Source: Heptranchias perlo (Eukaryota). From it: a stretch of 64,000 bases of DNA. Shown one piece after another: positions 4,874-62,189 of this stretch; position 1 is the stretch's first letter, and each line of letters opens with the position of its first letter. Position numbers and translations under genes: made by a program. A model generated the notes under the pieces. The model was not told the DNA's origin and searched no databases. It saw only the letters and a program-made list of their open reading frames with translations. The stretch is from assembly GCF_035084215.1 (NCBI RefSeq), contig NC_090325.1, forward strand, positions 196,726,001 through 196,790,000. Reading direction: 5' to 3'.

Positions 4874-4965
4874 AAAAACAGAAAATGCTGGAGAAGCTCA
4901 GCAAGTCAGGCAGCATCTGTGGAAAAAGGAACAGAGTTAATGTTTCAGGTCAAAGGCCTTTCGTC
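4874..4965 (-). mobile_element. 92-bp Penelope-type terminal fragment (family 2) with truncated hammerhead core
   Basis: 12-bp direct repeat AAAGAAGGAAGT at 4862-4873 and 4966-4977; homologous to 13091-13176; minus strand reads (T)GACGA-A-AGGCC-TTT-GACCT-GAAA-CA-TT. Confidence 0.72.
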
Positions 4966-7080
4966 AAAGAAGGAAGTTCTGATTAGGAACGAACAATTTG
5001 TCTCTTATCTAAGTTTTATTATTTTATTAAAGACACCAGGGATACATAAACCCACCGTAGGAACATTTTGCATTTATATAGCAACTTAGCACATCTCTGA
5101 CGACGTCTCAAAGCACTTCACATCCAATGAATTACTCTCTGGACTGTTGTTATGTGGCTAAGCACAGCAGCCAATTTGCTTACAGCAAGATGCCATGAGG
5201 TGTTATTATGTGTTACATGATCACCTCTTGTATCACACAGCTCATCATAACATCTCAGAAAACCATCTGGTTATGCCTCTGATGAAGAATCTTGAAAATG
5301 CATCCAAATTAAAATCCAAGTTCCATCAGAAACTACAATAAGCCCATAGGTCTTCTCTCTGCAAGATTCTTCATAAGGGGCCTTGTACTTGTTGCACCCT
5401 GAAGGGCAGCGCCCATAGAATGATTAGGTTTAATATGATCTGAGATTCCGATACACCAGGGACCAGGATCCAAGTATACAACTTTAAATGGGACAAATTC
5501 AATTAAATGAGGAAACAATTAAAGCAAATAGACTGGAGCAGAATATTCAACAAGACTTCAGGAGAAGACGAGTACAACACCTTTAAAAGAATAAAGCTAG
5601 AACTCAAAATAAATACAATCCTAGAATTAGCAAGCTCGGGCTAAACAAATGTGACCCTAAATAGATTAACAAACTAAATTAAAAGTGAAATAAAGAAGAA
5701 AAATGACCTCTGGAAACGAGCAAAGAGGAACAGGAAGGAGTTCATTGGGAAGCTCTGACGTGAGGGATTGGCAGTGACAACAGAACAATTCTTTGCAACG
5801 GTTTTGATTTTTTACTGGCGGTCAGACTCTGTCTAAGATGGAAACTCTAGATTTTAATGGGCATTTGGAAAGATAATTGACCAAATGTTAACTGAACCAG
5901 AAAATGAAAGCTGAGGGGGTTACGACACTGGCAAAAGAGGTCATTTTTGATGAGACTCTGCCTTTAGATTTTTGAATTGCCTAGTACATACATATCATTC
6001 ATAAAAAACCCCAAATATCTAATAATATATTAAGAATCATACGCCCATTAGAGGAGATGGGGAGGTGACCAAAGGATGCGGCCCAAGAGATCGTTTTTAA
6101 GGAGTGTTTTGAATGGGGCAGAAATGTGATGAGCTGGACGAGTTTGTGAAGAGAATTCCTTCCAGATCTGTATGGCTGATGGCTCTGCCATTGATGGTAG
6201 AACTCGGGGGGGGGGGGGGGGGGGGGGGGGAGATAGACGCACAGTAAGGAAGTGTCAGAAGTATAAAGAGTGCGTACTAGAAAGTTTTGGTCACTTGTGG
6301 CAATGCCACACATTACCCCACACTCTTGCCTCCATTTGCTCTCTGCTTCCTTATATTTATCTTATGGTAAAAGAAGTCCTATAGGGGCCAGGATTTTCCC
6401 TATCTCATTTGGAGAGGGAATCACACTCCTCGTTTCCCCCCTTGCTGTACCTGGACACCAGGCTGTGTGTCTTACTGCAAACGGAAGTATTACTGTGCGA
6501 CGGTAAGCAGGAAGAAAATTGTAACTGTTTAATTTTAGGACTTAAAACTGTAGCGTCCACAACATTCCAAACCCAGGAATTTATTTTAAAATATTCAATC
6601 AGTAATGGGTTTTGTTATTTTCCTCAATGGGATCATTTCCTCCTTCGGAAAACTGCTGACAAGTTTATTTTTACAATCTCAACATTTTCATTCTAAAATC
6701 TGAAATTGAGAAAAACTTTTCAAATTTCCCTTCCCTCTATAGATTCTTTCATATTTCCCGCAGCGTCAGGCTGAAGTGCAGAGAGGTTATCTTTTGGGCA
6801 CGGTCTCACATTATTTGCTTAAATTCAATTAAGGCGATCTCACACACCCAGTTTAGTTTGCGTCAATCCAAAATTGCTTTGCATTAATTTAAATGTGTAG
6901 TATGATTCTGTGTCTATGTTTCTGTTTCTATTAAACAATGTTCACACAGTAGCCTCAGTGTTCTGAGTGCATGCTGACAGCAACATCCCTCATCCACCAT
7001 CAGCGCATCTGTTGCACAATTGCAAATAAATGCGAGTGCGATTTTCAGATATGTGCTGTGAATAGGCCAGGTGCTCAGAC

Positions 7081-7540
7081 GTCAGCCATGGCTCAGTGGG
7101 CAGGACTCTCGCCTCTGGATCAGTAGGTTGTGGGTTCAAGCCCCACTCCAGAGACTTGAGCCCATAATCCAGGCTGACGCTCCCAGTGCAGTACTAAGGG
7201 AGTACTGCACTGTTGGAAATGCCATCTTTCGGATGAGATATTGAGCTGAGGCCCCGTCTGCCCCCTCAGGTGGGTGTGAAAGATACCATGGCACTATTTC
7301 GAAGAGGAGCAGGGAACGTCTCCCCAGTGTCCGGGCCAATATTTATCCCTCACTAAAACAAATTATCTGGTCATTATCACACTGCTGTTTATGGGACCTT
7401 GCTGTGCACAAATTGGCTGCTGCATTTCCTACATTACAACAGTGACTAACTTTGAAAAGTACTTCATTGGCTGTAAAACGCTTTGGGGCGCCCTGAGGTC
7501 GTGAAAGGTGCTATATAAATGCAAGTCTGTCTTTCTTTCT
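7081..7540 (+). mobile_element. Near full-length tRNA-derived SINE (SacSINE1/DeuSINE-like)
   Basis: A box TGGCTCAGTGG, B box GGTTCAAGCCC, central conserved domain, L2-like 3' tail; multiple homologous copies in the window. Family name recalled, not searched. Confidence 0.82.
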
Positions 7541-7747
7541 CACCACCAACACATTCTCATGAAATCTACCCCAGTGTTTAATCTTTAATGTGAAAGTTTT
7601 CAGACTATCCAGCCCTGTTGACATAACGTGCAGGTAATATGGCATTCAACAGATTTTTCATCAGAGCTATTTGTAAGAGAAAGGTTTTCAGTCAGAAGTA
7701 GAGGTTAACAGGTACAAAGATGGCATTTATTTTTAGAAACTGCATAC

Positions 7748-7892
7748 CAATGGAGGCCCAGGAGGGAGCCTGCCAGATGTCATTAAGCTGCCAGTACAAT
7801 GCGCCCATCGTCAAACCATGACCATCGATGATCTCACTTTGGCTGCGACGGTAGAACTCAGTTTGTGTTTTTATACATTGTGCTTGCATCAC
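7748..7892 (-). CDS. MANBA: MANBA exon 14
   Basis: [48 protein letters not shown]; 145 nt; aacag| and |gtatgc. Confidence 0.97.
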
Positions 7893-7953
7893 CTGTTTGT
7901 AAATATATAAATATATATACACACAACATGAAGGAGGACATTTTTATACTTCA

Positions 7954-9864
7954 CATAAGAATAAGAAATAGGGGCAGGAGTAGGCCATATGACCCCTCGA
8001 GCCTGCTCCACCATTCAATCAGATCATGGCTGATCTTCGACCTCAACTCCACTTTCCTGCCCGATCCCCATGTCCCTTGATTCCCCTAGAGTCCAAAAAT
8101 CTATCGATTTCAGTCTTGAATATAATCAACGACTGAGCATCTACAGCCCTCTGGGGTAGAGAATTCCAAAGATTCACAACCCTCTCAGTGAAGAAATTCC
8201 TCCTCATCTCAGTCTTAAATGGCCGACCCCTTATAGAAACATAGAACCATAGAAAAATTTACGGCTCAGAAGGAGGCCATTCGGCCCATCGTGCCTGTGG
8301 AAAAAGAGCCACCCAGCCTAATCCCACTTTCCAGCACTTGGTCCGTAGCCCTGTAGGTTTCGGCACTTCAGGTGCACATCCAGGTACTTTTTAAATGAAT
8401 TGAGGGTTTCTGCCTCTCCCACCCTTTCAGGCAGTGAGATCCAGACTCCCACCACCCTCTGGGTGAAAAAACTTTTCCTCAGCTTCCCTCTAATCCTTCC
8501 ACCAATCACTTTAAATCTATGCCCCTTGGTTATTGACCTCTCCTTATGGGAAATGGGTCCTTCCTATCCACTCTATCTGGGCCCCTCATAATTTTATACA
8601 CCTCAATTAAATCTCCCCTCAGCCTCCTCTGTTCCAAAGAAAACAACCCCAGCCTATCCAATCTTTCCTCATATCTAAAATTCTCCAGTCCTGGCAACAT
8701 CCTTGTAAATCTCCTCTGCACCCTCTCTAGTGCAATCACATCCTTCCTGTAATGTGGTGACCAGAACTGTACACAGTACTCAAGCTGTGGCCTAACTAGT
8801 ATTTTATACTGTTCTAGCATAACCTCCCTGCTCTTATATTCTATGCCTCAGCTAATAAAGGAAAGTATGCCTGCTTAACCACTTTATCTACCTGTCCTGC
8901 TACCTTCAGGGATCTGTGGACATGCACTCCAAGGTCCCTCTCTTCCTCTACACCTCTCAGTATCCTCCCATTTATTGTATACTCCCTTGCCTCGTTTGAT
9001 CTCCCCAAACACATTACCTCACACTTCTCTGGATTGAATTCCATTTGCCACTTTTCTGCCCATTGATATCTTCCTGCAGTCTACAGCTTTCCTCCTCACT
9101 ATCAACCACAAGACCAATTTTTGTATCATCTGCAAACTTCTTAATCATGCCCCCTACATGCAAGTCTAAATCATTTATACCATAAAAAGCAAGGGACCTA
9201 ATACTGAACCCTACGGAACCCCACTGGAAACAACCTTCCAGTCACAAAAACACCTGTCGACCATTACCCTTTGCTTCCTGCCACTCAGCCAATTTTTGAT
9301 CCAATTTGCCACTTTCCCTTGGATGCCATGAGCTTTTACTTTTCTGACCAGTCTGCCATGTGGGACCTCGTGAAAAGCCTTGCTAAAATCCACGTAGACT
9401 ACATCAATGCACTACCCTCATCGACCCTCCTTGTTACCTCCTCAAAAAACTCAATTAAGTTAGTCAGACATGACCTTCCCTTAACAAATCCATGCTGACT
9501 GTCCTCGATTAATCCGTGCCTTTCTAAATGACGATTTGTACTGTCCCTCAGAATTGATTCCAATAATCTGCCCAACACCGAGGTTAGACTGACTGGCCTG
9601 TAATTACTCGGTCTATCCCTTTCTCCCTTTTTAAACAACGGTACAACGTTAGCAGTCCTCCAATCCTCTGGCACCATACCTGTAGCCAGGGAGATTGAGA
9701 CTATGTCCCCTAGTTTTAGACACTCCAGCCAGGGGAAACAATCTCTCAGCATCTACCCTGTCAAGGCCACTCAGAATATTTTATGTTTCAATGAGATCAC
9801 CTCTCATTCTTCTAAACTCCAGAGAGTATAGGCCCATTGTACTCAACCTCTCCTCATAGGACAT
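7954..9864 (-). mobile_element. Nested CR1 LINEs: outer copy (7954-8234 + ~9696-9864) interrupted by inner copy (~8235-9695)
   Basis: Disrupted RT ORFs (NYRPVSLTS, QHGFVKGRSCLTNL, DFSKAF, SGVP, LEYCVQFWSPH); the outer sequence resumes colinearly after the inner element. Confidence 0.88.
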
Positions 9865-10977
9865 AGTGCATCACCTGTTTGTAAATATATGTATACTATA
9901 TACACAAACACCGATAATATATACACATATATATATATACATATACACACACGTAACATGAAGGAGGACATTTTTATGATGTGCATACATCGCATCAGTA
10001 TTATTAAATCAAAAAAGATTTAGTCACTGATTTAAAGTGGCATAAATCCACAGCGTTTAAAACTGCTCTATCACTCTCAAACTCATCCAAGTGTTTTAAA
10101 GGTTCACAATCAACAGTGGGAAAAATTAAACATTTGAAAGTTGCAACATCTCCTTTAATGATCCTATTTTATTGAAATGCACAAACAAAATATTGTCACC
10201 TCCCATTAAAATTTCTAAGATTTTCATCAACACCATTTAGTTCTTTTTTTCAAACCACAGAAAAACAATTCACATTCCCGATTCCTTCTCCTCCAACCAC
10301 TTTCCACAGTCAGGAATGCAATGACCTGGCTGCCAAAGCTCTTCTAAAAATTGCTTTCAATTCTACTTTATAATTGGCTAACGGGGCATAATTTCCACAC
10401 CTGCAATGTCCATTGTGGTCTCGTATCGATCTGCTAGCCCTGCTGAGAGGAGACAACACACTCCGAAATACAGGCAGCTTCAAGTAACAGAAACCCTGGG
10501 ACTGTAGCCCACAACCTTCTAGTTAGAAGGTAGACATTCTATACTTTACTGAACCAACTTAACAAATAAACTTCACAGTTCTCCAAGGATTTGGATGGTC
10601 AATCGGGATTGAGAAGGTTTATTTGCTGATTCGGCCAGTAGCTCCTGATGCTTACACTCTTAGCCTTTCCTTTCTTAATCCGATTAGTTCCTTGTACCAA
10701 ACAATATCCTGAATCCAACTTCTACCGAGTGACACTGGGTTACACAATGGCACCAGTAATCCAGCTAGTTTTGTTTGTCCAATTACAAGGATATTTATAC
10801 GTTCATAACCCAGTTATCAGATGACCAATAAAGCACACCATGGCATACAGCTGTGATAAGAGAATTAAGATGTGTTTTGGCACTAATGAATATCCAGGTT
10901 ATTTATCACGGGTTCCAAATATTCCGTTATTCTGATCCACTGCGATATCGTGGCAGTACAGTTTATTAGATCACTAC

Positions 10978-11142
10978 CTGAGTGAGATATAGAGTATCTC
11001 TGAAGTTCTGCAGGGGATCCTTTGCCTGAGAAAGGTTAAAGTGAATCTGAGTTTGGTGCAGCAATTTCTTGTTTCCAGCAATCTGGTGCTGTCGATGATC
11101 GGTGAAAGAACTGTTGTAATACCAGTCTTCAGGAGAAGAAAC
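10978..11142 (-). CDS. MANBA: MANBA exon 13
   Basis: VSSPEDWYYNSSFTDHRQHQIAGNKKLLHQTQIHFNLSQAKDPLQNFRDTLYLTQ; 165 nt; acaag| and |gtagtg. Confidence 0.95.
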
Positions 11143-12797
11143 CTTGTTAACAAGAAAAGGCAGAAACTTTAGAAGCATTTCATTTTCCTCAGAGATGCAG
11201 CATTCTCTCTAAAATACTCAGATTAGTCTCATGGCCCCTCAGTCTTCCCAATAATGTTTAAAAATGAGGATAGAGTGGAGCTCCTGGATTCTAATTTCTG
11301 ACAAAGCCATTTTTCCTCTACATCTGAATGTCCTTCAAATAAAAGGAAAAATGTGAAGAATGTTAGCAGCATTCCAACTGTACAGCACTTGATCTGCATG
11401 GAACAACTGAATTATGAGATGTGTAGTTTCTGAATGGAGTTGGCATTTGGTCCATTGCACCACAAAGGGTTAAACTATCTAAGGGGTTTAATCGGACGAT
11501 TCTGAGGTTAAATCGCCATCTCTGAACCACACAGATTCGGAGGCTTCAATACTCCGTCTGTGTTGACTTATCTGATCTTAGCCGGAGTAGCAGTAGAGCT
11601 GACTGCAGCATTCCTATTGGCCATTTTTTTTTATCATCACTAACCAACAATCCCTACTGAAAGTGTGCGTGTGTACATGTACGTGCATGCGTATGTGTAC
11701 ATGTGTGCGTACATGTATGTGTACATGCGTGCATGCGAATGCACCAACTGAGATCAGGATCAGGTTCAGTTGTTAAGTCCCCCACAGTCAGTCACTTCTA
11801 GCTCTCACTGTCAAGACTCTCAGATCAGTTGAGCAAAGTACTGGAGACCAAAGCAGTGAGAGAGTAAATGGGGGATAGGGAATGGAGAAAACTGGAGAGG
11901 ATTTTAAAGAAAACAGCTCAGGGTGTGAATGTGGGGACTCCCCTTCCATGATCCAGTTCAGATAATTCTCCCAAACTCAGAAACAGACAGTACTGTTCCA
12001 TAAAAAGGCTACATCCAGTATGTGGCATTTACATTTTGAAGAGATGCCTGCAGTTACTGAATGTACTATTTAAACTGACTTCACCTGTCACTCAGTTAAG
12101 ATCATATCTAGCTGACATACATGCTTAAATTTGAATCTTTAAGGGTTCCCAGTGCATTAAATTATTGGCCTGTGCACCTCAAATTCCCCAATATTCACTC
12201 CCTTTGGGAAGTCGCTGCACCTGGAGCATGAAGATGAAAATTTAACCTTAGTCACAGATCATAACACATCCCAGCGACACACAGAACTTCTCAATGTGTG
12301 AAGCCAGGTGGTAGTAACATAGAGGTATTGCTTACCAACCTCACAAGGCTCTCATTACATTGCAACACCACAAGTTATAAAACAAACAAGAATGACTATT
12401 TCTGTATGTAATGGGACAAAGGTAACTACACATGCAGCATTGAATTACTGACCTTCACCACTAAAGTTAATTTTAGACACCCAAGAACAGCTGATGTGAC
12501 TGAAACCAGGAGAGGGCGTCTTCTGGTAAATTGTCAAATCAGCAGTCACCCAGAACAATTGCAACATTCAAAACAACTGCGACTTAATAAAAACATTTAA
12601 CAGTTTCTGCAAAGCAAGTTATCAGTTAATCAGCTGTACGACTGGACTACGCTGCGTGCTGAACATGATTTAATGGGATTATTTTAATTAGTCAAAGGGA
12701 ACTGACACCATTAACTCATGTGATTTATTTACTTGTCTGGCATTTCCAAACAACAATTTCCAGCTACTGAAAAATAAATAGTTGCACTATTACATAC

Positions 12798-13016
12798 CCT
12801 TTCTAAAGTTGAGAGAGATGGCCAAGACTGAAAGCCGTATTCAGATGCAAATCTCGTCTTTGGAAAATGTGTCCAGTCCCAACAGTCGGTTATGTAATTA
12901 TAATAGTGGGTATCACCATAACGGACATCGTAAGGGTTCTTGGCAACCCACTTCTCCTGAATGGATTCCTCTCCGTTAGTGGGACTTGAAGCAATATAAG
13001 GACGAGTCCTGTCCTC
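12798..13016 (-). CDS. MANBA: MANBA exon 12 (nucleophile Glu in RFASEYG)
   Basis: EDRTRPYIASSPTNG...FPKTRFASEYGFQSWPSLSTLER; 219 nt; cccag| and |gtatgt. Confidence 0.97.
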
Positions 13017-13090
13017 CTGGGAACAGATGTTTAAAATATTCGTGAAGCAGTCGCTCTGGGTGAGTCTGTGCTAATCATAAAAATACTGAA

Positions 13091-13272
13091 ATAAAAATAA
13101 GGAAATGCTGTAAACACTCAGCAGGTCAGGCAGCATCCGCGGAGTTAAACGTTACAGGTCGATGACCTTTCATCAAGCACTCTCTCCCCACAGGTGCTGC
13201 CTGATCTGCTGAGGGTTTCCAGCATTTTCTATTTTTATTTCAGATTTCCACCATCCACAGTATTTTGTTTGT
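13091..13272. mobile_element. 182-bp fold-back Penelope-derived element (family 2)
   Basis: 14-bp direct repeat ATAAAAATACTGAA at 13077-13090 and 13273-13286; ~50-bp inverted arms at 13091-13142 and 13187-13238; degenerate hammerhead between them. Confidence 0.78.
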
Positions 13273-13559
13273 ATAAAAATACTGAATATAGTTAAATGGC
13301 TGATATTGTCTTTTGGGAGCAAACTCAGTTCCTTATTCAACAAGAAACAGACTGCTGGATAAAGCTGCCAATCACCATTCTGGGGAACAGATTGTGTTGC
13401 ACCAGATACTCCACCTGTAATACAATCTAGCCGCCCGCAAATTCAACAAGTTTTGCTAACAATATACCGGTAATGAGCAACTGTTGATGCAATGTTGATT
13501 AGTCCTTACAAATAGCATGAGATGTTTTGCTTGATTTTCTTACAAGAATGCCTTACTGC

Positions 13560-13800
13560 TTCCTAGAGTGAGACTGCCAATTTGTGCTGAATCACAGGCA
13601 GCGTGGTGCAATGTACCTAAGGCCACTAGAAACAACACTGAGACTAACCCAAACTTATTCCACATAAGACCCTCACAGCAAGTAGCGAAAAGAGATTGTG
13701 ATCCAATTAGCCTGGGCTGGATTCAAAGCCGGGTCGTAGAGGTGAATGAGCCTTAAACTAACCCATCTCATCTCATTTCTCAGTCACTGTACTCCAAACC
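13560..13800 (-). mobile_element. Ancient LF-SINE-like fragment
   Basis: Minus strand TTCACCTCTACGACCCGGCTTTGAATCCAGCCCAGG ... TATGTGGAATAAGTTTGGGTTAGTCTCAGT resembles the recalled LF-SINE head and body. Confidence 0.5.
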
Positions 13801-14056
13801 CTTCAGTTCTGCTTTCGCAAAGAAGTGCATCTGTGGTAAAAAAAAACATCTGACTGTAAAGTCAGTTTTGATTCTGGAGAAGGCTGTTAAAGAGTCCTTA
13901 AAAAGGCATATACATTTCTTGAAGAGTTGCCTATGATGACTCTAAAAGGGGTGCAGGAACAGAGAGATCTGGGGGTTTATATACACAAATCATTGAAAGT
14001 GGCAGGGCAGGTTGAGAAAGTGGTTAAAAAAGCACACGGGATCCTGGGCTTTATAA

Positions 14057-15780
14057 CCCGACCAAAGAACACACCCATCAGCTCAACAAACTGATCAAGA
14101 CCTTCGATCCAGACCTTCAAAGCATCCTACGCACTCTCATCCCACGTACTCCCCGCGTGGGAGACTTCTACTGCCTCCCAAAGATACACAAAGCCAACAC
14201 ACCCGGACGTCCTATCGTATCAGGCAATGGAACCCTGTGTGAGAACCTCTCTGGATACATCGAGGGCATCCTGAAACCCATCATACAGGGAACCCCCAGC
14301 TTCTGTCGCGACACTACAGACTTCCTACAAAAAGTAAGTACCCACGGACCAGTTGAACCAGGAACACTTCTCACCACGATGGACGTCTCGGCACTATACA
14401 CCAGTATCCCCCACGATGACGGCATCGCTGCGACAGCATCAATACTCAACATCAACAACAGCCAATCTCCGGACGCCATCCTACAACTCATCCGCTTCAT
14501 CCTGGATCACAATGTCTTCACCTTTGATAACCAGTTCTTTACCCAAACACACGGAACAGCCATGGGGACCAAATTCGCACCCCAATACGCCAACATTTCC
14601 ATGCACAAGTTCGAGCAGGACTTCTTCACTGCACAAGACCTCCAACCAACACTATAAACCAGATACATCGACGACATTTTCTTTCTATGGACCCACGGCA
14701 AGGAATCACTAAAGAGACTACACGATAACATCAACAAGTTCCATCCCACCATCAAGCTCACCATGGACTACTCCTCAGAATCAGTTTCTTTCTTGGATAC
14801 ACGAATCTCCATCAAAGACGGGCACCTCAGCACCTCATTCTACCGCAAGCCCACAGACAACCTCACGATGCTCCACTTTTCCAGCTTCCACCCTAACCAC
14901 GTCAAAGAGGCCATCCCCTATGGACAGGCCCTGCGAATACACAGGGTCTGCTCAGACGAGGAGGAACGTGATGGACACCTACAGACGCTGAAAGACGCCC
15001 GAGTAAGAACGGGATATGACGCTCGACTCATCGATCGACAGTTCCGACGGGCCACAGCAAAAAAATCACATAGACCTCCTCAGGAGACTAACACGGGACA
15101 CAACCAACAGAGTACCCTTTGTTGTCCAGTACTTCCCCGGAGCGGAGAAACTACGCCATGTTCTCCGCAGCCTTCAACATGTCATCAATGACGACGAACA
15201 CCTCGCTATGGCCATCCCCACACCTCCACTACTCGCCTTTAAACAGCCACCCAACCTCAAACAGACCATCGTTCGCAGCAAATTACCTAGCTTTCAAGAG
15301 AACAGCGTCCACGACACCACACAACCCTGCCACAGTAACCTCTGCAAGACATGCCAGATCATCGACACAGATACCACCATCACACGAGAGGACACCACCC
15401 ACCAGGTGCATGGTTCATACTCCTGTGACTCGGCCAACGTTGTCTACCTCATACGTTGCAGGAAAGGATGCCCCGGAGCATGGTACATTGGCGAGACCAT
15501 GCAGACGCTGCGACAACGGATGAACGGACACCGCGCAACAATCGCCAAACAGGAGGGTTCCCTCCCAGTCAGGGAACACTTCAGCAGTCATGGACATTCA
15601 TCCACCGACCTTCGGGTAAGCGTACTCCAAGGCGGCCTTCGAGACACACGACAACGCAAAATCGTCGAGCAGAAATTGATAGCCAAGTTCCGCACCCATG
15701 AGGACGGCCTCAACCGGGATCTTGGGTTCATGTCACGCTACACGTTACCCCACCAGCGAACAAATGTTATCTGTTTTTAA
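14057..15780 (+). pseudogene. Disrupted Penelope ORF (one nonsense codon, one frameshift)
   Basis: TAA at 14655-14657 just before TRYIDD; frame change in the A-run near 15059-15065; natural stop at 15778-15780. Confidence 0.88.
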
Positions 15781-16013
15781 TATAACGGGTCAGTTGCTGT
15801 CTTTTCTATGTTTCTACCTCTCTATCTCTGTTTTTTTTTGTTTTTTGTTTTTTTTTGGTGATTTGTATATTCGGAGACCTTGCAGGTAACACCTGTCTGT
15901 CTGCACACTGATTGCCTTGGCAACGGGCAGTTGAAAAAACTGTCTGTAATCACCAAGCATTGTTCTGTGAATTATAAATGCGATTTCATTTCGAGGATTT
16001 CATTTCCACATCG

Positions 16014-16052
16014 TTCACCTGAGGAAGGAGGAAGCCTCCGAAAGCTTGTGAA
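16014..16052 (+). ncRNA. Minimal type I hammerhead ribozyme motif, copy 1
   Basis: TTCAC-CTGAGGA-A-GGAGG-AAG-CCTCC-GAAA-GC-TT-GTGAA: stem I, CUGANGA core, stem II, GAAA, palindromic AAGCTT stem III, UH. Confidence 0.82.
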
Positions 16053-16264
16053 TTTAAAATAAAATTGCTGGACTATAACTTGGCGTTGTAAAATTGTTTA
16101 CAATTCTCTTTTTTTTGTTTTTGGGGGTTTGTATATTCGGTGGCCTTTTTAGGTGACACCTTTCTGTCTGCTCACTGTGATTGCCTTGGCAACGGGCAGT
16201 AATCACCAGGCATTGTTCTGTGATTTTAAAATGCGAAGGATTCGAAAATGTTATTTCCACACCG

Positions 16265-16303
16265 TTCACCTGAGGAAGGAGGAAGCCTCCGAAAGCTTGT
16301 GGG
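16265..16303 (+). ncRNA. Minimal hammerhead ribozyme motif, copy 2
   Basis: Same core; stem I TTCAC/GTGGG with G-U pairs. Confidence 0.78.
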
Positions 16304-16627
16304 ATTAAAAATAAAATTGTTGGACTATAACTTGGTGTTGTAAAATTGTTTACAATTTATAAATAGAGGCACAGAGTACTAAAGTATGGAAGTCAAGATG
16401 AACCTTTGTAAAACACTGGTTCGACCACAACTGGAGTATTGTGTCCAGTTCTGGGCACCGCACTTTAGGAAAGATGTGAAGGCCTTAGAGAGGGTGCAGA
16501 GGAGATTTACTAGAATGATTCCAGGAATGAGGGACTTCAGTTACGTGGATAGACTGGAGAAGCTGGGGTTGTTCTCCTTGGAACAGAGACGGTTGCGAGG
16601 AGATTTGATAGAGGTATTCAAAATCAA

Positions 16628-44471: not shown

Positions 44472-45158
44472 TGCCCCCCCCCACACACACTCCCCCGCCC
44501 CCTCCCCACACACCCTCCCCCCGCCCCCTCCCCACACACCCTCCCCCCGCCCCCTCCCCACACACCCTCCCCCCGCCCCCTCCCCACACACCCTCCCCCC
44601 GCCCCCTCCCCACACACCCTCCCCCCGCCCCCTCCCCACACACACTCCCCCCGCCCCCTCCCCACACACACTCCCCCCGCCCCCTCCCCACACACACTCC
44701 CCCCGCCCCCTCCCCACACACACTCCCCCCGCCCCCTCCCCACACACACTCCCCCCGCCCCCTCCCCACACACACTCCCCCCGCCCCCTCCCCACACACA
44801 CTCCCCCCGCCCCCTCCCCACACACACTCCCCCCGCCCCCTCCCCACACACACTCCCCCCGCCCCCTCCCCACACACACTCCCCCCGCCCCCTCCCCACA
44901 CACACTCCCCCCGCCCCCTCCCCACACACACTCCCCCCGCCCCCTCCCCACACACCCTCCCCCCGCCCCCTCCCCACACACACTCCCCCCGCCCCCTCCC
45001 CACACACCCTCCCCCCGCCCCCTCCCCACACACACTCCCCCGCCCCCTCCCCACACACACTCCCCCGCCCCCTCCCCACACACACTCCCCCGCCCCCTCC
45101 CCACACACACTCCCCCGCCCCCTCCCCACACACACTCCCCCGCCCCCTCCCCACACAC
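44472..45158. repeat. C-rich minisatellite, 25-26-bp unit (CTCCCCCCGCCCCCTCCCCACACACA), ~27 copies
   Basis: Directly visible. Confidence 0.96.
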
Positions 45159-45589
45159 CCGATGGGCCGAGAATAACTTGCTTCAATCCTCGGACTTGCT
45201 CCCAATGCAAACACAGTCCTGCAGGAAATCTTAATGGAGCAATTTACTCCCCCTCAAAAGCACCATGTGATCAAAATGTGCAATGGCTTCATAATGTACA
45301 TGTGTGAATGTAAAATCTTGAAATTCAATTTAAAAATGCTGTGTGGAGAACAAAAACACTCTGCAATGATGGGATTTCAACACTGACATTTAAATAAAAT
45401 TCGGTGCCAATTTCAACTCTCGACAAAAGAATAATTATCAGCAAAAAGAGAAAACTTCTCATGCCTCTGTGAAAGGTTTATCCTTTTTAATTTAAGTAAT
45501 GTAAAACTTTTAACAAAATTACAATTAATTATAAAAGCATTTGAAAGTTTAATTTTTAGGCTCCCCCAAGTAGCACAGCCCCTTTCAAC

Positions 45590-45972
45590 ATAGAACTACA
45601 TAGACTTTACACCACAGAAACAGGCCATTCGGCCCAACAGGTCTGTGCTGGTGTTTATGCTCCACACGAGCCTCCTCCCTCCCTACTTCATCTCACCCTA
45701 TCAGCATATCCTTCTATTCCTTTCTCCCTCGTGTGTTTTTCTCGCTTCCCCTTAAATCCATCTACACCATTCGCCTCAACTACTCCTTGTGGGAGTGAGT
45801 TCCACATTCTCACCATTCTCTGGGTAAAGAAATTTCTCCTGAATTCCCGATTGGATTTATTAATGACTATTTTATATTTATGACCCCTAATTCTGGTCTC
45901 CCCCACAAGTGGAAACATCTTCTCTACATCTACCCTATCAAACCCTTTCATAATCTTGACTCTATCAGGTCT
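45590..45972 (-). mobile_element. CR1 3' fragment
   Basis: MKGFDRVDVEKMFPLVGETRIRGH...FFTQRMVRMWNSLP. Confidence 0.85.
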
Positions 45973-46639
45973 CTAACTAGTGAGTAATTAAACCTTACAG
46001 ACCAGGAAGTTCCCATATTTGGTCCCCAGACTGCACTGAGTCAGCTAAATGCAGCTGGGGTTGGAACAGGGGCATTAGAATCGAACTCAACCCTTAGGTT
46101 ATGGCAGAGAGAATTGGGTCAGGATCCTGCTCCTCATCAACTGTCCATCAATCCCTGCTGCAAGTGCACGTGTGAGCAGGAGGACACTCGGCTGTTACAG
46201 GTCTATGGACGGTCAGTGTCATGGTTCATATATAAATGATGGCCATTTAGTCAATATATCAGAGGGCAACCAGTGCCCATGGATCTATGCCCCAGTAAGG
46301 AGTCACCGCATTCAGAAGCAAAGAGCAGAAAATCAACATGTTAAAAATAAATTAATTTTAGGTGCAGTATAGATCCCACTCCAAAGCGTTATTAAACAAA
46401 AATCAAACCAAGCATCACTAGAATGGGATAAATCCACGCGCTCTCCAGTAAACTAAAGCAAAACACTAAGAAACGAGTTCTAAAAAGAGTAGAGACACTA
46501 ACAGGTACATTTTCTGCACGCCCGCTCCTGGCACAAAGCCTTGCCCACAGGGAGGGCAGAATTTTGATGGAGAGACTGTCATGGTCCAGGCGGATGCAAT
46601 TTCCCATTCTGTGCTGCCAGTACGCGGGGGAAGAGGGTG

Positions 46640-47167
46640 GGGGGCAGTACCGAGGGAGCGCTGCACCGTCGGGGGGGGGCAGTACCGAGGGAGCGCTGCA
46701 CCGTCGGGGGGGGGCAGTACCGAGGGAGCGCTGCACCGTCGGAGGGGCAGTACCGAGGGAGCGCTGCACCGTCGGAGGGGCAGTACCGAGGGAGCGCTGC
46801 ACCGTCGGAGGGGCAGTACCGAGGGAGCGCTGCACCGTCGGAGGGGCAGTACCGAGGGAGCGCTGCACCGTCGGAGGGGCAGTACCGAGGGAGCGCTGCA
46901 CCGTCGGAGGGGCAGTACCGAGGGAGCGCTGCTCCGTCGGAGGGGCAGTACCGAGGGAGCGCTGCTCCGTCGGAGGGGCAGTACCGAGGGAGCGCTGCTC
47001 CGTCGGAGGGGCAGTACCGAGGGAGCGCTGCTCCGTCGGAGGGGCAGTACCGAGGGAGCGCTGCTCCGTCGGAGGGGCAGTACCGAGGGAGCGCTGCTCC
47101 GTCGGAGGGGCAGTACCGAGGGAGCGCTGCACCGTCGGAGGGGCAGTACCGAGGGAGCGCTGCACTG
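46640..47167. repeat. 33-bp CpG-rich minisatellite (GGAGGGGCAGTACCGAGGGAGCGCTGCWCCGTC), ~16 copies, SINE-derived
   Basis: The unit matches SINE segments at 7185-7220 and 55055-55092; the array runs on into SINE body sequence to ~47490. Confidence 0.95.
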
Positions 47168-48169
47168 TAGTAGTGACCATCCTATGGATGAGATGTTAAA
47201 TCATATCTGTGTTCTGGTGGATATTGGAGATCCTAGGGCAGTATTTGAAGGATTACAGGAAGTTGTCAGGGTGTCCTGGTTGATATTCTTCCCTCAACCA
47301 CCACCAAGAATAAATGAACTGGTCATAAAACTCTGTGCTGTTTGTGGAAACTTTGTTAATGGTAAAATCCAGCAGCCATTTTGCACAATATAACAACAGT
47401 GGCTGCATTTCAAAGCAGCTAACTGCACATGAATTTTTTTTTTGATGTTTCTGAGACTTGACGAGACTCTATATAAATCCAAGTTCGTTCACATATACAT
47501 GGGAGTTATAGTTCTATGTTAGCTCTAACATCAAACACTAAGTAACATTAAACTAGTGACAGGGAATGAAAATCATTCCGTACTTGCCCTCAGGCCACAT
47601 ATTCAGGATCATATTACTTTCTGCACAGAAATACTGCTGGAATTTTCCAGGAAGCTTATAGAGCTCCTTTACGCGTCTCTGAAAGAATCCCCAAGATCCC
47701 TACAAGCACTTCCAGTTGTGGCTCTATAAATAAGTTTAAAATCTTCAGCACTACTCTCTTCAGTAGCAAACTTCTTTGATGAGCAAAGATTGCTTGGAAT
47801 TGTGAACATCTCGTGTGAAGTTGAGGCCTTGGTTTATGCAGCATTTAAAGCTAGAGTATTTCAGCTGCTGCCCCCTTTAGTAGCTCTCTGTTATCAACAA
47901 AAATAAAGCAAACTAGTCTTTAAGTTATTTCATGTTGACCATTATATTTTGGTTGCGCTCAATGATTTGGGAACAGTTCTCCAGCTTAATTAACTCAAGT
48001 GCATCATTTTTTTTAAAAAATGGTTTAAAATAGAATCATATAACTTTAGAATTCAGAGGGAGGTCATTTGGTCTATGGTGTTTATGCTGGGTTTCTGAAA
48101 AAGCTATCCACTTAGTTCCACTCCCCTGCCTTATTTCCACTCCCTTTTAAAGTTTTCTTATTCAAATAG

Positions 48170-48720
48170 GCCTCAGCTGGAGTATTGTGTCCGATTCTAG
48201 GCACCACACTTTAGGAAAGATGTCAAGGCTTTAGAGAGGGTGCGGAGGAGATTTGCTAGAATGGAACCAGGGGAGAGGTACCTCAGTTATGTGGAGAGAC
48301 TGGATAAGCTGGGATTGTTCTCCTTAAAACAGAGAAGATTAAGGGGAGATTTGATCGAGGTGTTCAAAATCATGAAGGGTTTTGATAGAGTAAATAAGGA
48401 GAAACTGTTTCCAGTGGCAGGAGGGTCGGTAACCAGAGGACACAGATTTAAGGTAATTGGCAAAAGAGCCAGAGGAGAGATGAGGAAATATTTTTTTACG
48501 CAGCAAGTTGTGATGATCTGGAATGCGCTGCCTGAAAGGGCGGTGGAAGCAGATTCAATAATAACTTTCAAAAGGGAATTAGGTAGATACTTGAAGAGAA
48601 AAAACTTACAGGGCTATGGGGAAAGAGCAGGGGAATGGGACTAATTGGATAGCTCTTTCAAAGAGCCAGCACAGGCACGATGGGCTGAATGGCCTCCTCC
48701 TGTGCTGTACCTACTATGAC
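48170..48720 (+). mobile_element. CR1 3' fragment
   Basis: ORF 48240-48644 is the CR1 ORF2 C-terminus. Confidence 0.87.
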
Positions 48721-49351
48721 ACTGTGAAATATTTTGACTCTCAGGTTCAAGGAGTGCAAACTCGAATCTACCTGGTACACAACTGGCTTAATAACCGATC
48801 GCTCGATCTGGTTCGAACACCGAGCCTTGCTCTCTCTCCTTTGTCAAAACTGTCCACTACTCCAACAACTTGGAGGGCAAAAATAAATAATTTTCCCTTT
48901 AAAACTCTCTTCGTGACCTCTAATAAATACAAGGTCGTCTTGGATTTCTTTGTCACCAAGACAGAAACCACCAATTCAGTCGCCTCTGCTGCTCACACTT
49001 GCCCCTCACCCACACTTGCCCCAACCTCCCCCAGTCCCTCTCCCATTCCAGCCCAGCCAGAGTGGGGGGGGGGTTGGGGGGGTCGGAGAAAGAGGCAAGT
49101 CACATTCTCTCAGGCCTACTATTCCATCCCTGTCCCCCCTCCCATGGAGCCATAACCCCCTAACTCACGCTAGGTCAGATGTGTGGGATTTGGAAATATT
49201 GGGTGAAGTTCAGTGGGAATCAAGAGGAATGTTGAGCTTTGGGTAGGTGGGGGAGGGGGGAGAGGGGGGAGCAGGAGGGTGGTGTTTCTGGGTTAAGGCA
49301 GGACTGTGTAAGGGGAACCTAGGGTATATGGTAGCACTGGGGATTGAATCT

Positions 49352-49551
49352 NNNNNNNNNNNNNNNNNNNNNNNNNNNNNNNNNNNNNNNNNNNNNNNNN
49401 NNNNNNNNNNNNNNNNNNNNNNNNNNNNNNNNNNNNNNNNNNNNNNNNNNNNNNNNNNNNNNNNNNNNNNNNNNNNNNNNNNNNNNNNNNNNNNNNNNNN
49501 NNNNNNNNNNNNNNNNNNNNNNNNNNNNNNNNNNNNNNNNNNNNNNNNNNN
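49352..49551. other. Assembly gap (200 N)
   Basis: Run of exactly 200 N. Confidence 0.99.
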
Positions 49552-50039
49552 TCACATTTATACTGTTTTTTGCCATGTTTATGCGCAATGTACAGTTGGC
49601 AAATGCAGTACTAAAGGACAAATAGTGCTAAAAACCATCTCTGGCACCTCTCTCTTATACAACCAGCTCTAATTAGAATGTTCACAATTTCTGTCAATAA
49701 AGCACCATCGATGGTAACCATTGCCTTCGTATTTACTAGAAAAGCTTTCAAAGTTCAGTTCATTTATTTTGGGGAAAAAACTCAAATTGTGAGGAAAGAC
49801 ACTGCCTCACTGTCCCTCTCACTGTCTTCTGATTTACGCTGTCTCTCAAACCAAAAATTTAACAATTCATAAAATATGAAACTTTATCTGAATAATTCAT
49901 TCCACAGATTGTTTTTAAAAATTTGAAAGAACACAAAAATCCTTTTATCTAGTAAGGAGATATATCTCCTCCAGTACTGAGTCAGCATGCCACCCACCCT
50001 AACAGAATCCTAGAAATGCATGATAGGCAATTCTCAGCG

Positions 50040-51755
50040 TGAACCTACATTGGCTCCCGGTCCGGCAACGCCTTGATTTTAAAATTCTCATCCTTCTTTT
50101 CAAATCCCTTCATGGCCTCGCCCCTCCCTATCTCTGTAACCTCCTCCAGCCCTACAACCCTCCCAGATCTCTGCGCTCCTCCGATTCTGGCCTCTTGCAC
50201 AGCCCCGGTTTTCATCGCTCCACCATTGGCGGCCGTGCCTTCAGCTGCCTGGGCCCTAAGCTCTGGAATTCCCTCCCTAAACCTCTCCGTCTTTCTCTCC
50301 TCCTTTAAGATGCTCCTTAAAACCTACCTCTTTAACCAAGCTTTTGGTCACCTGTCCTAATATCTCCTTATGTAGCTCGGTGTCAAATTTTGTTTGATAA
50401 TCACTCCTGTGAAGCACCTTGGGGCGTTTTACTACGTTAAAGACGCTATATAAATGCAAGTATTTGTTGTTGCTGCTGCTGAAACTGTACCAACTCCTTA
50501 AAGCTAACACTGTGACAGCTGTTAATCAAAATATCTACTTCAAACCTAGCCTTTTGAGGGAAGCAGAGTACTTTATGTAAAAGCATTAATGAAGCTACTC
50601 AAACACACAAATACAATTTTAAAGATAAGTTCAACCATGCTTTTGTGAAATACATAACATTGTGTGTTAATATTGTATTAGAAATTTGTTTCTGTACTTG
50701 CCCATCATTTTCTGCCCATTAAAATTAATTTTACCCCCTTGTTTTTAGTCCATACTCATTAAAAAACGAAAACAGCAGGCAGAGAAAATTCAAATAACGT
50801 TTTGAGCAACTTGGTTGCTTCTTTTATTGATACAGTCTCCCGACTGATCATTATGGATTAGTTCTTTCCATGAGTCCTTATTGGTAGTTTTCTTACCATT
50901 TTTGATTGGCTTATTCCCTACCTCCTCTGATTAGTTTCAGCCCATCAACAAAATGTGACAGAAAAAGCAGAAGAAAGTGTACCAAAAAGTAGGTGTTATA
51001 TTTACAGGACGTGCGTGTTCCATATGTCATACATGTTCCATGCGTCTGACTCCACACAGCTGTACCAAGAATTCACAGCTGTGGTAAGTGCCTTTGCTTA
51101 ACCAATTCGTCTGAATTTCTAAAGGCAGTTTTCATACCTGATCAAGCAAGGACACAAACAGGACTTTGCAGCCACTTAATTGCAAAGGAAATTCTAACCA
51201 TAATATTCATGAACCTTTTTAAAATGTTTACTGCTCATTGTGAAATTTGATAGGTGCTGATACAATCTCTCAGTTCCTTCAAAGAGCTGGCACAGGCACA
51301 ATGGGCCGAATGGCCTCCTTCTGTGCTGTAAGATTCTATGCAGACAACAATTTGCATTTATATAGCGCCTTTAATGTAGCAAAAATGTCCCAACCTTCAC
51401 AGGAGCAATCAGACAAAATTTGACACTGAGCCACACTGAGAGCATTAGGACAGGAGACCAAAAGAGGTAGGTTTTAAGGAGCGACTTCAGGGAGGAGGAG
51501 CGACTTCAGGGAGGGAATTCCAGAGCTCAGGGCCTAGGCAGCAGAAAGCACGGCCGCCAACGGTGGAGCGATGGAAATCGGGGATGTGCAAGAGGCCAGA
51601 ATTGGAGAAGAGCAGAGATCTCGGAGGGTTGTAGGAGGTTACAGAGATAGGGAGGGGGCGAGGGCCATGGAGGGATTTGAAAACAAGGATGAGAATTTTA
51701 AAGCCGAGGTGTTGTCGGACCGGCGGCCAATGTAGGTCAACGAGCACAGGGGTAC
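50040..51755. mobile_element. Two L2 3' fragments in opposite orientation (plus ~50040-50475; minus ~51345-51755)
   Basis: LHWLPVRQRLDFKIL... on plus; VDLHWPPVRQHLGFKIL... on minus. Confidence 0.85.
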
Positions 51756-52114
51756 CAAGGGGTACTGAATGCAACACATCTATAGCTACGATAATTCAAT
51801 AAAACACCTCCTTCTTTGTTCTTCACTCACCCCCTCCCATATTCCTCGCAGCACAAAAACAGCGTAAAGTAACTTTTGCCAAGGTTTAATCTGCCTAAGC
51901 AAGACACGACGTGTCGTCACTCTTCTATATATATGTATGAACTGGAGAAGAGTTTGTAATAGGGGCTTAAGGAAGGGAACAGATTATGTCACACAACACA
52001 AAACTGGATCAAAAACACATTTTCAGCATATAACATTTTTTTTCCAAGTGCAAATGCTGGAGACCTGAAACACGAACACAAAATGCTATCAATTCACAGC
52101 ATTCCTTGCCATAC

Positions 52115-52285
52115 CTTTCTGATGAAGTTGACGTGACACTCTCCGTTTTGCTGAGGTGGTGGGCATTCAGGGGGCACTGGGTAGTTACTATGTCGAGCAT
52201 TCTGTTGTGCTGCATAGGAGACTGCAGATAAAAAGCGGACCTCGATGAGGTTTGTTTCTTTGATCACGTCCGTACAATCAAAAGT
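52115..52285 (-). CDS. MANBA: MANBA exon 4
   Basis: [28 protein letters not shown]...[20 protein letters not shown]; 171 nt; tttag| and |gtatgg. Confidence 0.96.
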
Positions 52286-52909
52286 CTAAAACAAAAAAGC
52301 AAAATCAAAGACTTGCGACAATGTCTGAACATCAAGATTGACTTTTCACAAACAGCCTTTATAGTTTTTTTTTAAAAATAGGCAGATATTTTTGTCAGCA
52401 ATATATACAAAATGATTTTCTTCAAATTACTGATACTTTTGTAATGTTAGTTGAAAATAATTCAATAAGAAACTGCCTGGTGATTTTTCCCTTCCCTGCC
52501 TCTAAGTTCTTAGGTTCAGTGAAGAGGAGAAAGGGGGAACAGAGACCCTAGTACCAGGGCATTGCCCCACTAGGCTGTCCCGGGATTGTCTGGACTGCCC
52601 CATTGGCAGATAGCAGTAACCAGGAGGTCCAAATGCTGGCCTTTGTGCTCCTGTTTCCACCCTCGCCTTGATGCCAGTGCAAGGCCGTGCCAGGTGTGCG
52701 CAGGACCAAGCTAATGGCCCAGGCGAGACAATTCCAGGGCAAGTGTGTAAAGCCACTTCATTAGAGGAGGAAAAGGAGCAATTAAGAGAGGTGGCCGAAA
52801 GCTTGGTCATACAGATGAGTTTCGAAAGACTTCTATAAAAGGAAAGGGCAATAAAGAGGGAAAGTGTGAGAGAGAGAGGGAAAGGGAGAAACAGCAGAGG
52901 GATTTTGTA

Positions 52910-54612
52910 GAATGATACGGCACAGAAGGAGACCTTTTGGCCCATCGTGCCTGTGCTGGCTCTTTGAAAGAGCTATCCAATTAGTCCCATCCCCCTGCTC
53001 TTTCCCCATAGCCCTGCAAATTTTTCCTTTTCAAGTATTTATCCAATTCCCCTTTTGAAAGTTATTATTGAATCTGCTTCCACCGCCCTTTCAGGCAGCA
53101 CATTCCAGATCATAACAACTCACTGCGTAAAAAAATGTTTCCACATGTCGCATCTGGCTCTTTTGGCGATCACCTTAAATCTGTGTCCTCTGGTTACAGA
53201 CCCTTTTTTAAAAAAAATTCATTCATGGGATGTGGGCATCGCTGGCTAGGCTGGCATTTATTGCCCATCCCTAATTGCCCTTGAGAAGGTGGTGGTGAGC
53301 CACTTTCTTGAACCACTGCAGTCCGTGTGGTGAAGGTTCTCCCACAGTGCTGTTAGGAAGGGAGTTCCAGGATTTTGACTCAGCGACGATGAAGGAACGG
53401 CGATATATTTCCAAGTCGGGATGGTGCGTGACTTGGAGGGGAACGTGCAGGTGGTGTTGTTCCCATGTGCCTGCTGTTCTTATCCTTCTAGGTGGTAGAG
53501 GTCGCGGGTTTTGGAGGTGCTGTCGAAGAAGCCTTGGCGAGTTGCTGCAGTGCATCCTGTGGATGGTACACACTGCAGCCACGGTGCGCCGGTGGTGAAG
53601 GGAGTGAATATTTAGGGTGGTGGATGGGGTGCCAATCAAGCGGGCTGCTTTGTCCTGGATGGTGTCGAGCTTCTTGAGTGTTGTTGGAGCTGCACTCATC
53701 CAGGCAAGTGGAGAGTATTCCATCACACTCCTGACTTGTGCCTTGTCGATGGTGGAAAGGCTTTGGGGAGTCAGGAGGTGAGTCACTCGCCACAGAATAC
53801 CCAGCCTCTGATCTGCTCTTGTAGCCACGGTATTTATTTGGCTGGTCCAGTTAAGTTTCTGGTCAATGGTGACCCCCAGGATGTTGATGGTGGGGGATTT
53901 GGCAATGGTAATGCCGTTGAATGTCAAGGGGAGGTGGTTAGACTCTCTCTTGTTGGAGATGGTCATTGCCTGGCACTTGTCTGGCGCGAATGTTACTTGC
54001 CACTTATCAGCCCAAGCCTGGATGTTGTCCAGGTCTTGCTGCATGCGGGCACGGCCTGCTTCATTATCTGAGGGGTTGCAAATGGAACTGAACACTGTGC
54101 AGTCATCAGCGAACATCCCCATTTCTGACCTTATGATAGAGGGAAGGTCATTGATGAAGCAGCTGAAGATGGTTGAGCCTGCCACTGGAAACATTTTCTC
54201 CTTATTTACTCAAAATCCTTCATAATTTTGAACACCTCTATTAAATTTCCCCCTAACTTCTCTGCTCTAAGGAGAACAACCCCAGTTTCTCCAGTCTCTC
54301 CACGTAACTGAAGTCCCTCATCCCTGGTACCTTTCTGGTAAATCTCTTCTGCACCCTCTCTAAGGCCTTCATATCCTTCCTAAAGTGTGGTGCCCAGAAT
54401 TGGACACAATACTCCAGCTGAGACCAAACAAGTGTTTTGTAAAGATTTAGCAGAACTTCCTTGCTTTTGTACTCTATGCCTCTATTTATAAAGCCCAGGA
54501 TCCCATATGCTTTTTTAACAGCCTTCTCAACTTGTCCTGCCATCTTCAGCAATTTGTGTACGTACACCCCCAGGTGTCTCTGTTCCTGCACCCCCTTTAA
54601 AATGTTACCATT
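52910..54612 (-). mobile_element. CR1 fragment with family-B LINE (~53205-54178) nested inside
   Basis: 307-aa ORF FINDLP...MFADD...WADKWQVTF; host CR1 splits at GGTTACAGACCC|...|CCTGCCACTGGAAAC. Confidence 0.88.
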
Positions 54613-54964
54613 TAGGGAGGGAGATCCAGAGAGCAGGGTGGAGACGCCAGGCCTTCTTTGACAAGCCGAGTGAGATTAAGGAACTGTGGAGAATTGTGGG
54701 GAATGAGTAGGTGCCACACTCTGCTATATTTGGTACATGATGCTGCACAGTATATCGTTTGGCAAATTACTCAGTCTCCAGCACTGAGTGTGAATAAAAT
54801 CATGCGATGTGCACAGCACTGAGGAAAGAACAAATTTCCACTGATAGCTACACCCATTACCTTCTACATATAATACTTTCGGATAGGATTCATATTTGTG
54901 TGCAGAGGAACAGAAAGTGAGATGACGAGGCTGTGCTACCAATAGCAGAAGAAGGGTTACCATA

Positions 54965-55412
54965 AACGTGTGGCCGACATAGCACTCTCACTTGAGTCAG
55001 AAGGACGTGGGTTCACTCCAGAGACTTGAGCACAAAATCTAGGCCAACACTCCCAGTGCGGTACTTAGGGAGTGCTGCACTGTCGGAAGTGCCGTCTTTT
55101 GGATGAGACGTTAAACCAAGGCCTCGTCTGCCCTCTTGGATGGACGTAAAAGATCCCACAGCCACTATTTCAAAGAAGAGCAGGGGAGTTCTCCCAGTTG
55201 CCTGGCCAATAATTATCCCTCAAACATCATCACTAAAAACAGATCAGGTCATTACCTCATTACTGTTGTGGGATCTTGCTGTGCGCAAATTGGCTGCCGT
55301 GTTTCCTACATTACAACAGTGACTACACTTCAAAACCACTCACTTGGCTGTAAAGCGCTTTGGGACGTCCTGAGATTATGAAAGGCGCTGTAGAAATGTA
55401 AATCTTTCTTTT
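54965..55412 (+). mobile_element. SacSINE1/Deu-type SINE
   Basis: Colinear with 7081-7540. Confidence 0.82.
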
Positions 55413-55833
55413 TAAATGGTCTGAATGAAGAGATAGTGGGATTAATATAACTGTAGACCCATTCTGTCACATTCTTAATATCTGGCAGCCTATCAAAGGA
55501 AATGCTGAACAAAGGTTATCCATTTTCCATTGGATGGGGGAAAGGGGAATTAAAATTCATAAGGTGTCGCCTCTGTCTGCTTTCTTGCACTGCCAGGCAA
55601 CTGATTATAGCGATTTCCCATTTCAGCTGGGGAACTATAGAGGGCATGGGAAGATCCAAAGAGGAGATCATATTAAAAATATGGAGTTAGAAAAAGGGTT
55701 AGCAATGCCAATCTGCAACGTTCTCCGCAAAATTCAGAGACATGCTTCTTTTGGTGCTGGGAAACTCTTCTTGACTCAAGGTTATCCTCAGATCGCCTGA
55801 TATATACACTGGGACAATGCTGTTAAAAAGATC

Positions 55834-56031
55834 TTACAACACCAAGTTATAGTCCAGCAATTTTATTTTAAATTCACAAGCTTTCGAAGGCTTCCTCCTT
55901 CCTCATTTACCTGAGGAAGGAGGAAGTCTCCGAAAGCTTGTGAATTTAAAATAAAATTGCTGGACTATAACTTGGTGTTGTAAAATTGTTTACAATTGTC
56001 AACCCCAGTCCATCACCGGCATCTCCACATC
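55834..56031. mobile_element. 198-bp fold-back Penelope-derived element (family 1) carrying a hammerhead at 55906-55944 (+)
   Basis: 12-bp TSD GTTAAAAAGATC at 55822-55833 and 56032-56043; 55834-55905 is the reverse complement of 55912-55983; same sequence as the 3' end of the 14057-16355 element. Confidence 0.9.
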
Positions 56032-62140: not shown

Positions 62141-62189
62141 ATATCATTGCGGCCCCTCCCAGTGCGGGGGTGCTGACCGGCAGTGCACG

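Follow-up and report, generated by a model that had tools for sequence, protein, structure and literature searches.

Copy ends of Penelope-like elements track a predicted transcription start in the shark Heptranchias perlo

We analyzed a 64,000-nucleotide stretch of the genome of the shark Heptranchias perlo (NC_090325.1, positions 196,726,001 to 196,790,000 of the forward strand; hereafter the window), in which introns of MANBA, the gene for beta-mannosidase, contain copies of 2 families of Penelope-like elements (PLEs), here called A and B, that bear a hammerhead ribozyme motif. Our reading, to which we give a probability of roughly 0.7, is that the 5' ends of copies of both families crowd before the hammerhead because the template RNA begins there, and that their head-to-head palindromes were formed from 2 separately primed complementary DNAs (cDNAs). 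The upstream limit of the copy ends moves with the subfamily (-17, -14, -10, and about -4 to -6, counted from core base C3) and tracks an initiator-like site, not the ribozyme. Most short copies end just before the hammerhead, at what is likely the transcription start of the element, as predicted from its sequence motifs.

Architecture of the 2 families

Both families have a known architecture, of which they are new members. In family A, matches to RVT_1 (E = 2e-5) and GIY-YIG (E = 9e-4), both below the curated cut-offs, place a reverse transcriptase (RT) and an endonuclease domain at 14028-15777 of the window, and in family B a GIY-YIG-like open reading frame (ORF) was found upstream of 5 of 30 loci, along with RT-like matches. 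The derivation of both families from Penelope, claimed in a first-pass annotation made from the sequence of the window, was upheld by these matches. An RT followed by a C-terminal GIY-YIG endonuclease, pseudo-long terminal repeats (pLTRs) in tandem or inverted arrangement, and a 30-40 bp tail at one end only, as known from endonuclease-bearing (EN+) PLEs, were all identified. Among 93 short head-to-head pairs, a sample enriched by the searches used, exactly 1 arm carried the long tail in 89, with a short end on the other arm. Papers on EN+ PLEs (PMC8557442, PMC3846280, PMC2377424) describe, in the passages considered here, the same RT and C-terminal GIY-YIG, tandem pLTRs, head-to-head inverted arm, tail at one end, target duplications, and microhomology joints. 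The inverted copy in those passages is 5'-truncated, the tail is 30-40 bp long, and copies are called variably truncated, whereas here the ends track the predicted sense start and the 2 arms can be different variants.

The ribozyme motif is a minimal type I hammerhead, with the core boxes, stems I and II, and palindromic stem III positions all present; an Rfam scan of the window returned no match to a hammerhead family. In its CUGANGA/GAAA core, the extra base before stem II, and the palindromic stem III positions, it resembles the minimal type I hammerheads of metazoan PLEs as described in parts of PMC4209133, which likewise occur mostly solo, with some opposite-strand pairs. The fold of the hammerhead monomer is weak (z -1.3), and the palindrome at 55.9 kb folds as one long hairpin (-98.6 kcal/mol). 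Tandem arrays of short hammerhead-bearing monomers, which define non-LTR (long terminal repeat) retrozymes, were not found; the short copies are solo or head-to-head, and the tandems seen are the pLTRs of ORF-bearing copies.

Copy ends and the predicted start site

We selected 70 tail-anchored arms on the basis of their 3' part (from the first 30 hits on C1, the intron blocks, and the window) and placed their 5' ends relative to C3. Forty arms end at -20 to +1, none at +2 to +30, 2 at -21 to -40, and 8 in an A/T run at +31 to +46, with the remaining 20 being longer; arm C7 7583, which the script placed at -4, in fact has a hairpin joint at +1, and the arm at -57 is a long copy with an indel. 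The non-uniform spread of ends around the core that the first-pass annotation predicted is thus real as regards crowding on the 5' side of the hammerhead, with C3 itself being only a minor peak. A second cluster of ends, 3-15 nt after the cut site, was seen in loci L032, L033, L039, L040, L048-L050, and others.

In Pol II core promoters, a start of the YYANWYY or pyrimidine-purine type is preceded by a TATA box at a distance of about 30 nt. In every subfamily, the long copies carry a TATA-like box followed 27-30 nt later by an initiator-like site, in agreement with this spacing. The initiator-like site precedes C3 by 17 nt in subfamily A1, 14 in A5, about 10 in A2, 8-12 in A4, and 4 in family B. 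Copy ends gather at this site and a little downstream of it, and few lie farther upstream. Counts of exact patterns over the 3.25-Gb genome gave 5,310 A1 copies reaching -12, 3,008 reaching -17, 2,347 reaching -18, and 1,948 reaching -24 (the last with a search pattern 3 letters shorter at the 3' side), that is, a loss of 10.7% per base, then 22% on moving 1 base beyond the predicted +1, and then 3.1%. Beyond -24, A1 loses 0.8% per base to -45, and 45 of 53 among the matches listed reach -45, across a second ATTTC. For A5, in which the initiator lies 3 nt nearer C3 than in A1, the counts were 2,004 (-9), 1,281 (-14), 1,159 (-15), and 1,087 (-18), and 6% is lost over -15 to -18, where A1 loses 22% in one step. 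Short arms in the loci ended at -12 to -19 in A1 (18/19), at -12 to -16 in A5 (10/12), at -9 to -10 in A2 (6/10, with 5/10 at -10), and at -4 to -12 in A4 (9/10); selection of the locus sets for arms reaching -12, -9, -6, and -5 biases the medians and leaves the upstream limits unaffected. Scored by eye, 21 of 24 clear A2 ends (duplicates collapsed) fall at -7 to -11, and 16 of 23 clear family B ends at -3 to -6, with the mode at -4.

Several points weigh against placing these ends at a transcription start. The start site is predicted from motifs, and several of the TATA-like boxes are non-canonical (TTAAAA). With the ends aligned on TATA, a difference between subfamilies remains (medians 30, 30, 27 for A5, and 31; Kruskal-Wallis p = 0.0009), and a few short arms overshoot the predicted start (A1 at -37; A2 at -16, -22, -27, and -43). 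Counting exact patterns gives more weight to young copies and does not separate point changes from true ends, and subfamily variants could inflate the per-base losses. The 8 of 70 arms in the A/T run after the cut site are unexplained by the model, and a look for a cap-derived G found it at 4 of 15 non-inverted junctions. A G stands before 47 of the 100 A1 ends among the matches listed and before 5 of 8 family B ends (both by eye), and in 40 fetched A1 junctions 18 of 22 G fall in inverted joints, many with the partner arm as template. Several A1 junctions (L292, L302, L305, L310) have additional T runs ahead of the predicted start, as expected from untemplated A added to the cDNA end, or from slippage.

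Three minus-strand arms of the window begin at TGANGA without C3 (at 4966, 13176, and 55905), as first described, and from them a breakpoint common to all copies had been proposed. That generalization fails genome-wide, where 36,926 family A cores keep C3 and only 1,202 are without it (3.2% of 38,128). The loss is 947 (2.4%) at U4 and 521 (1.4%) at the base before C3, and only 0.37% of copies (166 of 44,320) have their 5' end at the cut site. C3 is therefore a modest local maximum, and the copies bear no trace of cleaved RNA. Among the family B matches listed, just 2 of 100 cores end at the C3 break (by eye). Among C3-lacking loci, 24 of 30 were flagged as inversion junctions, and in 17 the partner arm served as template as far as the joint, where 1-4 bases, usually TGA, are shared. 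The 2 families seem to share the break, probably because the predicted start of family B lies 4 nt before C3 and TGA/TCA microhomology acts in A.

Cleavage-product RNA was rejected as a template, with cut-site ends being at background, and the uncleaved ribozyme suggested earlier as the template is retained; this result bears on the template, not on ribozyme activity. Cleavage and circles are proposed as template in the relevant passages of PMC4209133, and the copy ends here show no mark of cleavage. A spliced template was also rejected, since the flanks at the ends are mutually unrelated and family B keeps AG.

Palindromes, proposed mechanism, and alternatives

The head-to-head palindromes were likely joined from 2 separately primed cDNAs. 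Both cores were comparable in 68 pairs, and in 16 of these the arms differ at subfamily-diagnostic columns. Differences between arms were found at 20 of 340 diagnostic columns vs 14 of 1,564 other positions (p = 8e-8), and were mostly changes to the other common allele and mostly transversions. Fold-back of one strand would yield identical arms, so at least the mixed pairs likely had 2 templates; later gene conversion is a possible source of mixed arms. In L1 twin priming, both target nicks prime and the junctions show short microhomology, with 2 different parts of 1 RNA being copied, whereas both arms here cover the same leader and can differ in variant.

In the mechanism we propose, the pLTR promoter would start the RNA just before the hammerhead, and reverse transcription would begin internally, about 85 or 120 nt after C3, as it does in vitro for an anole element, so that priming within the first pLTR would leave only 100-140 nt to copy. 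Synthesis of cDNA would read through the uncut ribozyme and run off the 5' end of the RNA. The cDNA end would then be joined to the target in a solo stub or, in a palindrome, to a second cDNA primed from the opposite nick, via 1-4 nt of microhomology and often with trimming of one arm, and pairing of the core TGA with an upstream TCA or CA could produce the small peak at C3. Long copies may come from priming in the downstream pLTR of a read-through RNA.

This proposal draws on in vitro work on the Poseidon element of Anolis carolinensis (PMC11167929), which reports, in the passages considered, that the protein, a predicted dimer, nicks and extends both strands, that 2 internal start sites define the tail, and that ribozyme cleavage is not needed. 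As in our copies, the hammerhead lies near the ORF start, 2 3' ends match 2 internal priming sites, and uncut RNA is the template. The Poseidon work maps the start of the cDNA and not its end; inverted insertions and the transcription start are absent from those passages. In the sections considered of PMC3846280, a TATA box and an initiator are noted in a rotifer pLTR, and head-to-head palindromes are proposed to form via self-priming on an antisense template, with a sense template left open. The promoter of the D. virilis PLE is given, in the account considered, as TATA-less, unlike the TATA-like boxes here, and new PLE insertions are described as short in part of PMC9977147. A literature search, with most subscription journals and supplements outside its coverage, returned no paper linking PLE copy ends to the transcription start.

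The first-pass annotation had suggested, as one of 2 causes, that the RT halts, or undergoes template switching, at the 5' edge of the uncleaved hammerhead fold. Such a stall would fit the crowding within 20 nt of C3, with 0 of 70 arms ending inside the motif, as well as the higher losses at U4, C3, and -1 (2.4%, 3.2%, and 1.4%) than at the cut site (0.4%), but the A1 limit lies 12 nt beyond stem I, and between subfamilies the limit shifts from -17 to about -4 along with the promoter-like motifs. The shift between A1 and A5 by itself already weakens the stall, the monomer fold is weak, and a fold should block entry on its 3' side, where ends are rarest; we regard this explanation as improbable. 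Only slightly better placed, and still unlikely, is a limit set by sequence only, with slippage or microhomology occurring at an A-rich stretch or at AUUU, or with a processed RNA end. ATTT is indeed the end point in both A1 and A5, several junctions show additional T runs, passages of PMC11167929 report an ATT nicking preference, and the other cluster of ends falls in the A/T run at +31 to +46. However, the second ATTTC, 13 nt further upstream in A1, gives no drop, and the stops in A2 and B, at GAAC/AAAC and CCAGTT, both lie about 30 nt downstream of the TATA-like box of the respective element.

For the palindromes, fold-back self-priming of one strand, proposed for rotifer elements on an antisense template (PMC3846280, in the part considered), would account for the 52 of 68 pairs with arms alike at all diagnostic columns and for the near-perfect hairpin junctions, which are common. 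These 52 pairs count against 2 cDNAs as the only route, and fold-back copying may make some palindromes. As the general route we give fold-back little credence, given the 16 pairs with arms of different variants, the stop of both arms at or inside the predicted sense start, and the differing 3' ends of the arms.

We lean, by a small margin, toward a wider reading in which the tens of thousands of shark Penelope stubs would be complete leader cDNAs, extending from the site of internal priming as far as the cap, and the Penelope protein would act as a dimer that primes both target strands on 2 sense RNAs and joins the cDNAs head to head. If true, genomic stub ends would map PLE promoters in any species and settle the template strand for inverted pLTRs, the formation and strand of which PMC3846280 leaves open in the sections considered. 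Ends tracking the predicted sense start, mixed-variant arms, and the lack of a mark at the cut site favor uncut sense RNA and 2 cDNAs, and the question of mechanism is now testable in the existing in vitro system. The present analysis adds the counts that shift with subfamily, the arms of mixed variant, and the strand test described below.

Strand test in introns and insertions in MANBA

The MANBA coding exons were identified as 16 matched segments running from 62632 to 2106 on the minus strand, so the listed PLE copies are all intronic and the plus strand is antisense; the MANBA exon of the window is 84% identical to shark proteins. The 4 intact minimal hammerhead cores first reported on the plus strand were confirmed (C3 at 16019, 16270, 16633, and 55911). 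The 7 copies from which an antisense bias had been read are real and intronic in MANBA, but they are not independent. The cores at 16014 and 16265 are the tandem pLTRs of 1 insertion behind 1 RT/GIY-YIG ORF, with TTTATAA at its bounds, and 55905 and 55906 belong to the 2 arms of a single palindrome, so that the window holds 5 insertions and 8 arms, with the uncounted eighth being a broken, antisense arm in the 13.1-kb insertion. For 3 independent insertions with an intact core on one strand, p = 0.25.

As control introns we used 990 kb between same-strand Laminin-G exon matches on C10 and C46 (plus strand) and C8, C7, and C2 (minus strand), each span being assumed to be a single gene; we take these genes to be neurexin and CNTNAP. 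Among 35 family A arms, intact hammerheads were 15 sense vs 12 antisense (p = 0.70; 95% interval of the sense share 0.35-0.75, n = 27), and broken arms 3 sense vs 5 antisense. Most of these arms form head-to-head pairs, with 1 arm per strand, and the unpaired intact copies were 3 sense vs 4 antisense. In 3 control-intron pairs that had lost C3, the broken arm was antisense each time, opposite to the window. Family B arms numbered 13 sense vs 23 antisense (p = 0.13; intact 1 vs 3), and CR1-type repeats 36 sense vs 30 antisense, so the sampled introns show no general antisense bias. A strong intronic strand bias is excluded for family A, and a mild bias is still compatible with the sample. Hammerhead motifs are thus about as frequent in the sense as in the antisense direction of introns, the bias toward antisense was not reproduced outside MANBA, and the orientation of the intact cores in MANBA is best read as chance.

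Selection purging sense-strand self-cleaving motifs from pre-mRNA, the other cause suggested earlier, is very improbable. The 4 of 4 antisense intact cores in MANBA and the family B counts lean toward it, and a 2026 preprint reports, in the part considered, that retrozymes are under-represented in Xenopus introns, without strand analysis. The family A counts of intact, unpaired, and broken arms speak against it, as do the antisense broken arms of 3/3 asymmetric control-intron palindromes. Little selection would be expected, since a single minimal motif was uncleaved in vitro according to parts of PMC4209133 and the palindrome folds into one long hairpin. The sense strand of family B carries several splice-acceptor-like motifs of a pyrimidine tract plus CAG (4874-4966; loci L261-L290), a possible non-ribozyme source of any bias behind its 13 vs 23 counts (p = 0.13).

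Table 1. Features of the window, by position, with the evidence used for each.
Feature	Position	Strand	Evidence
MANBA coding exons, host gene of every insertion	2106..62632	-	tblastn of P0003 and P0005; PDB 6ddt match
Solo stub of family B that starts at hammerhead base U4	4874..4966	-	12-bp target duplication at 4862 and 4966 (one base shared)
One arm of a head-to-head insertion of family B, with its start at U4	13091..13176	-	14-bp target duplication at 13077 and 13273
Family B partner arm without hammerhead, antisense to MANBA	13177..13272	+	
Penelope-like ORF (RT, GIY-YIG), 5'-truncated and frame-broken, inside a CR1-type copy at TTTATAA	14057..15777	+	
TATA box of the first pLTR, 29 nt upstream of the predicted start	15973..15978	+	sequence; function predicted
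Initiator-like YYANWYY; predicted +1 at 16002, 17 nt before C3	16000..16006	+	sequence and genome-wide end counts
Minimal type I hammerhead of the first pLTR (subfamily A1), C3 at 16019	16014..16054	+	
Second tandem pLTR, other subfamily variant: TATA-like 16226, initiator-like 16251, hammerhead C3 16270, short 3' end	16226..16355	+	
Solo stub of family A with its start 5-6 nt before C3 (16633); shares a CR1-type copy with the ORF-bearing insertion	16627..16717	+	
Family A arm starting at U4, short 3' end; CA microhomology at the joint with its partner	55834..55905	-	same junction in L110 and L128
Partner arm of family A (subfamily A2), intact hammerhead (C3 55911), long tail	55906..56031	+	12-bp target duplication at 55822 and 56032

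The tandem pLTRs (15884-16355) of the single ORF-bearing insertion represent different subfamily variants and are 82% alike in their upstream part. This suggests that a switch between 2 RNAs took place within a single event, or that an insertion was made later at the tail. In one CR1-type copy, at 14050-17056, 2 independent family A insertions are separated by 270 bp, and many fetched loci are also within CR1-type copies, often at TTTATAA-like sites. An assembly gap of 200 bases is located at 49352-49551. At 21870-27350, a MANBA intron contains a tandem array of ~5 kb with a 36-bp unit, in which both strands have open frames; the unit resembles part of a dispersed repeat at 38096-38566. Four more minisatellite arrays with long open frames were identified at 19560-20030, 44380-45300, 46470-47200, and 62720-63380.

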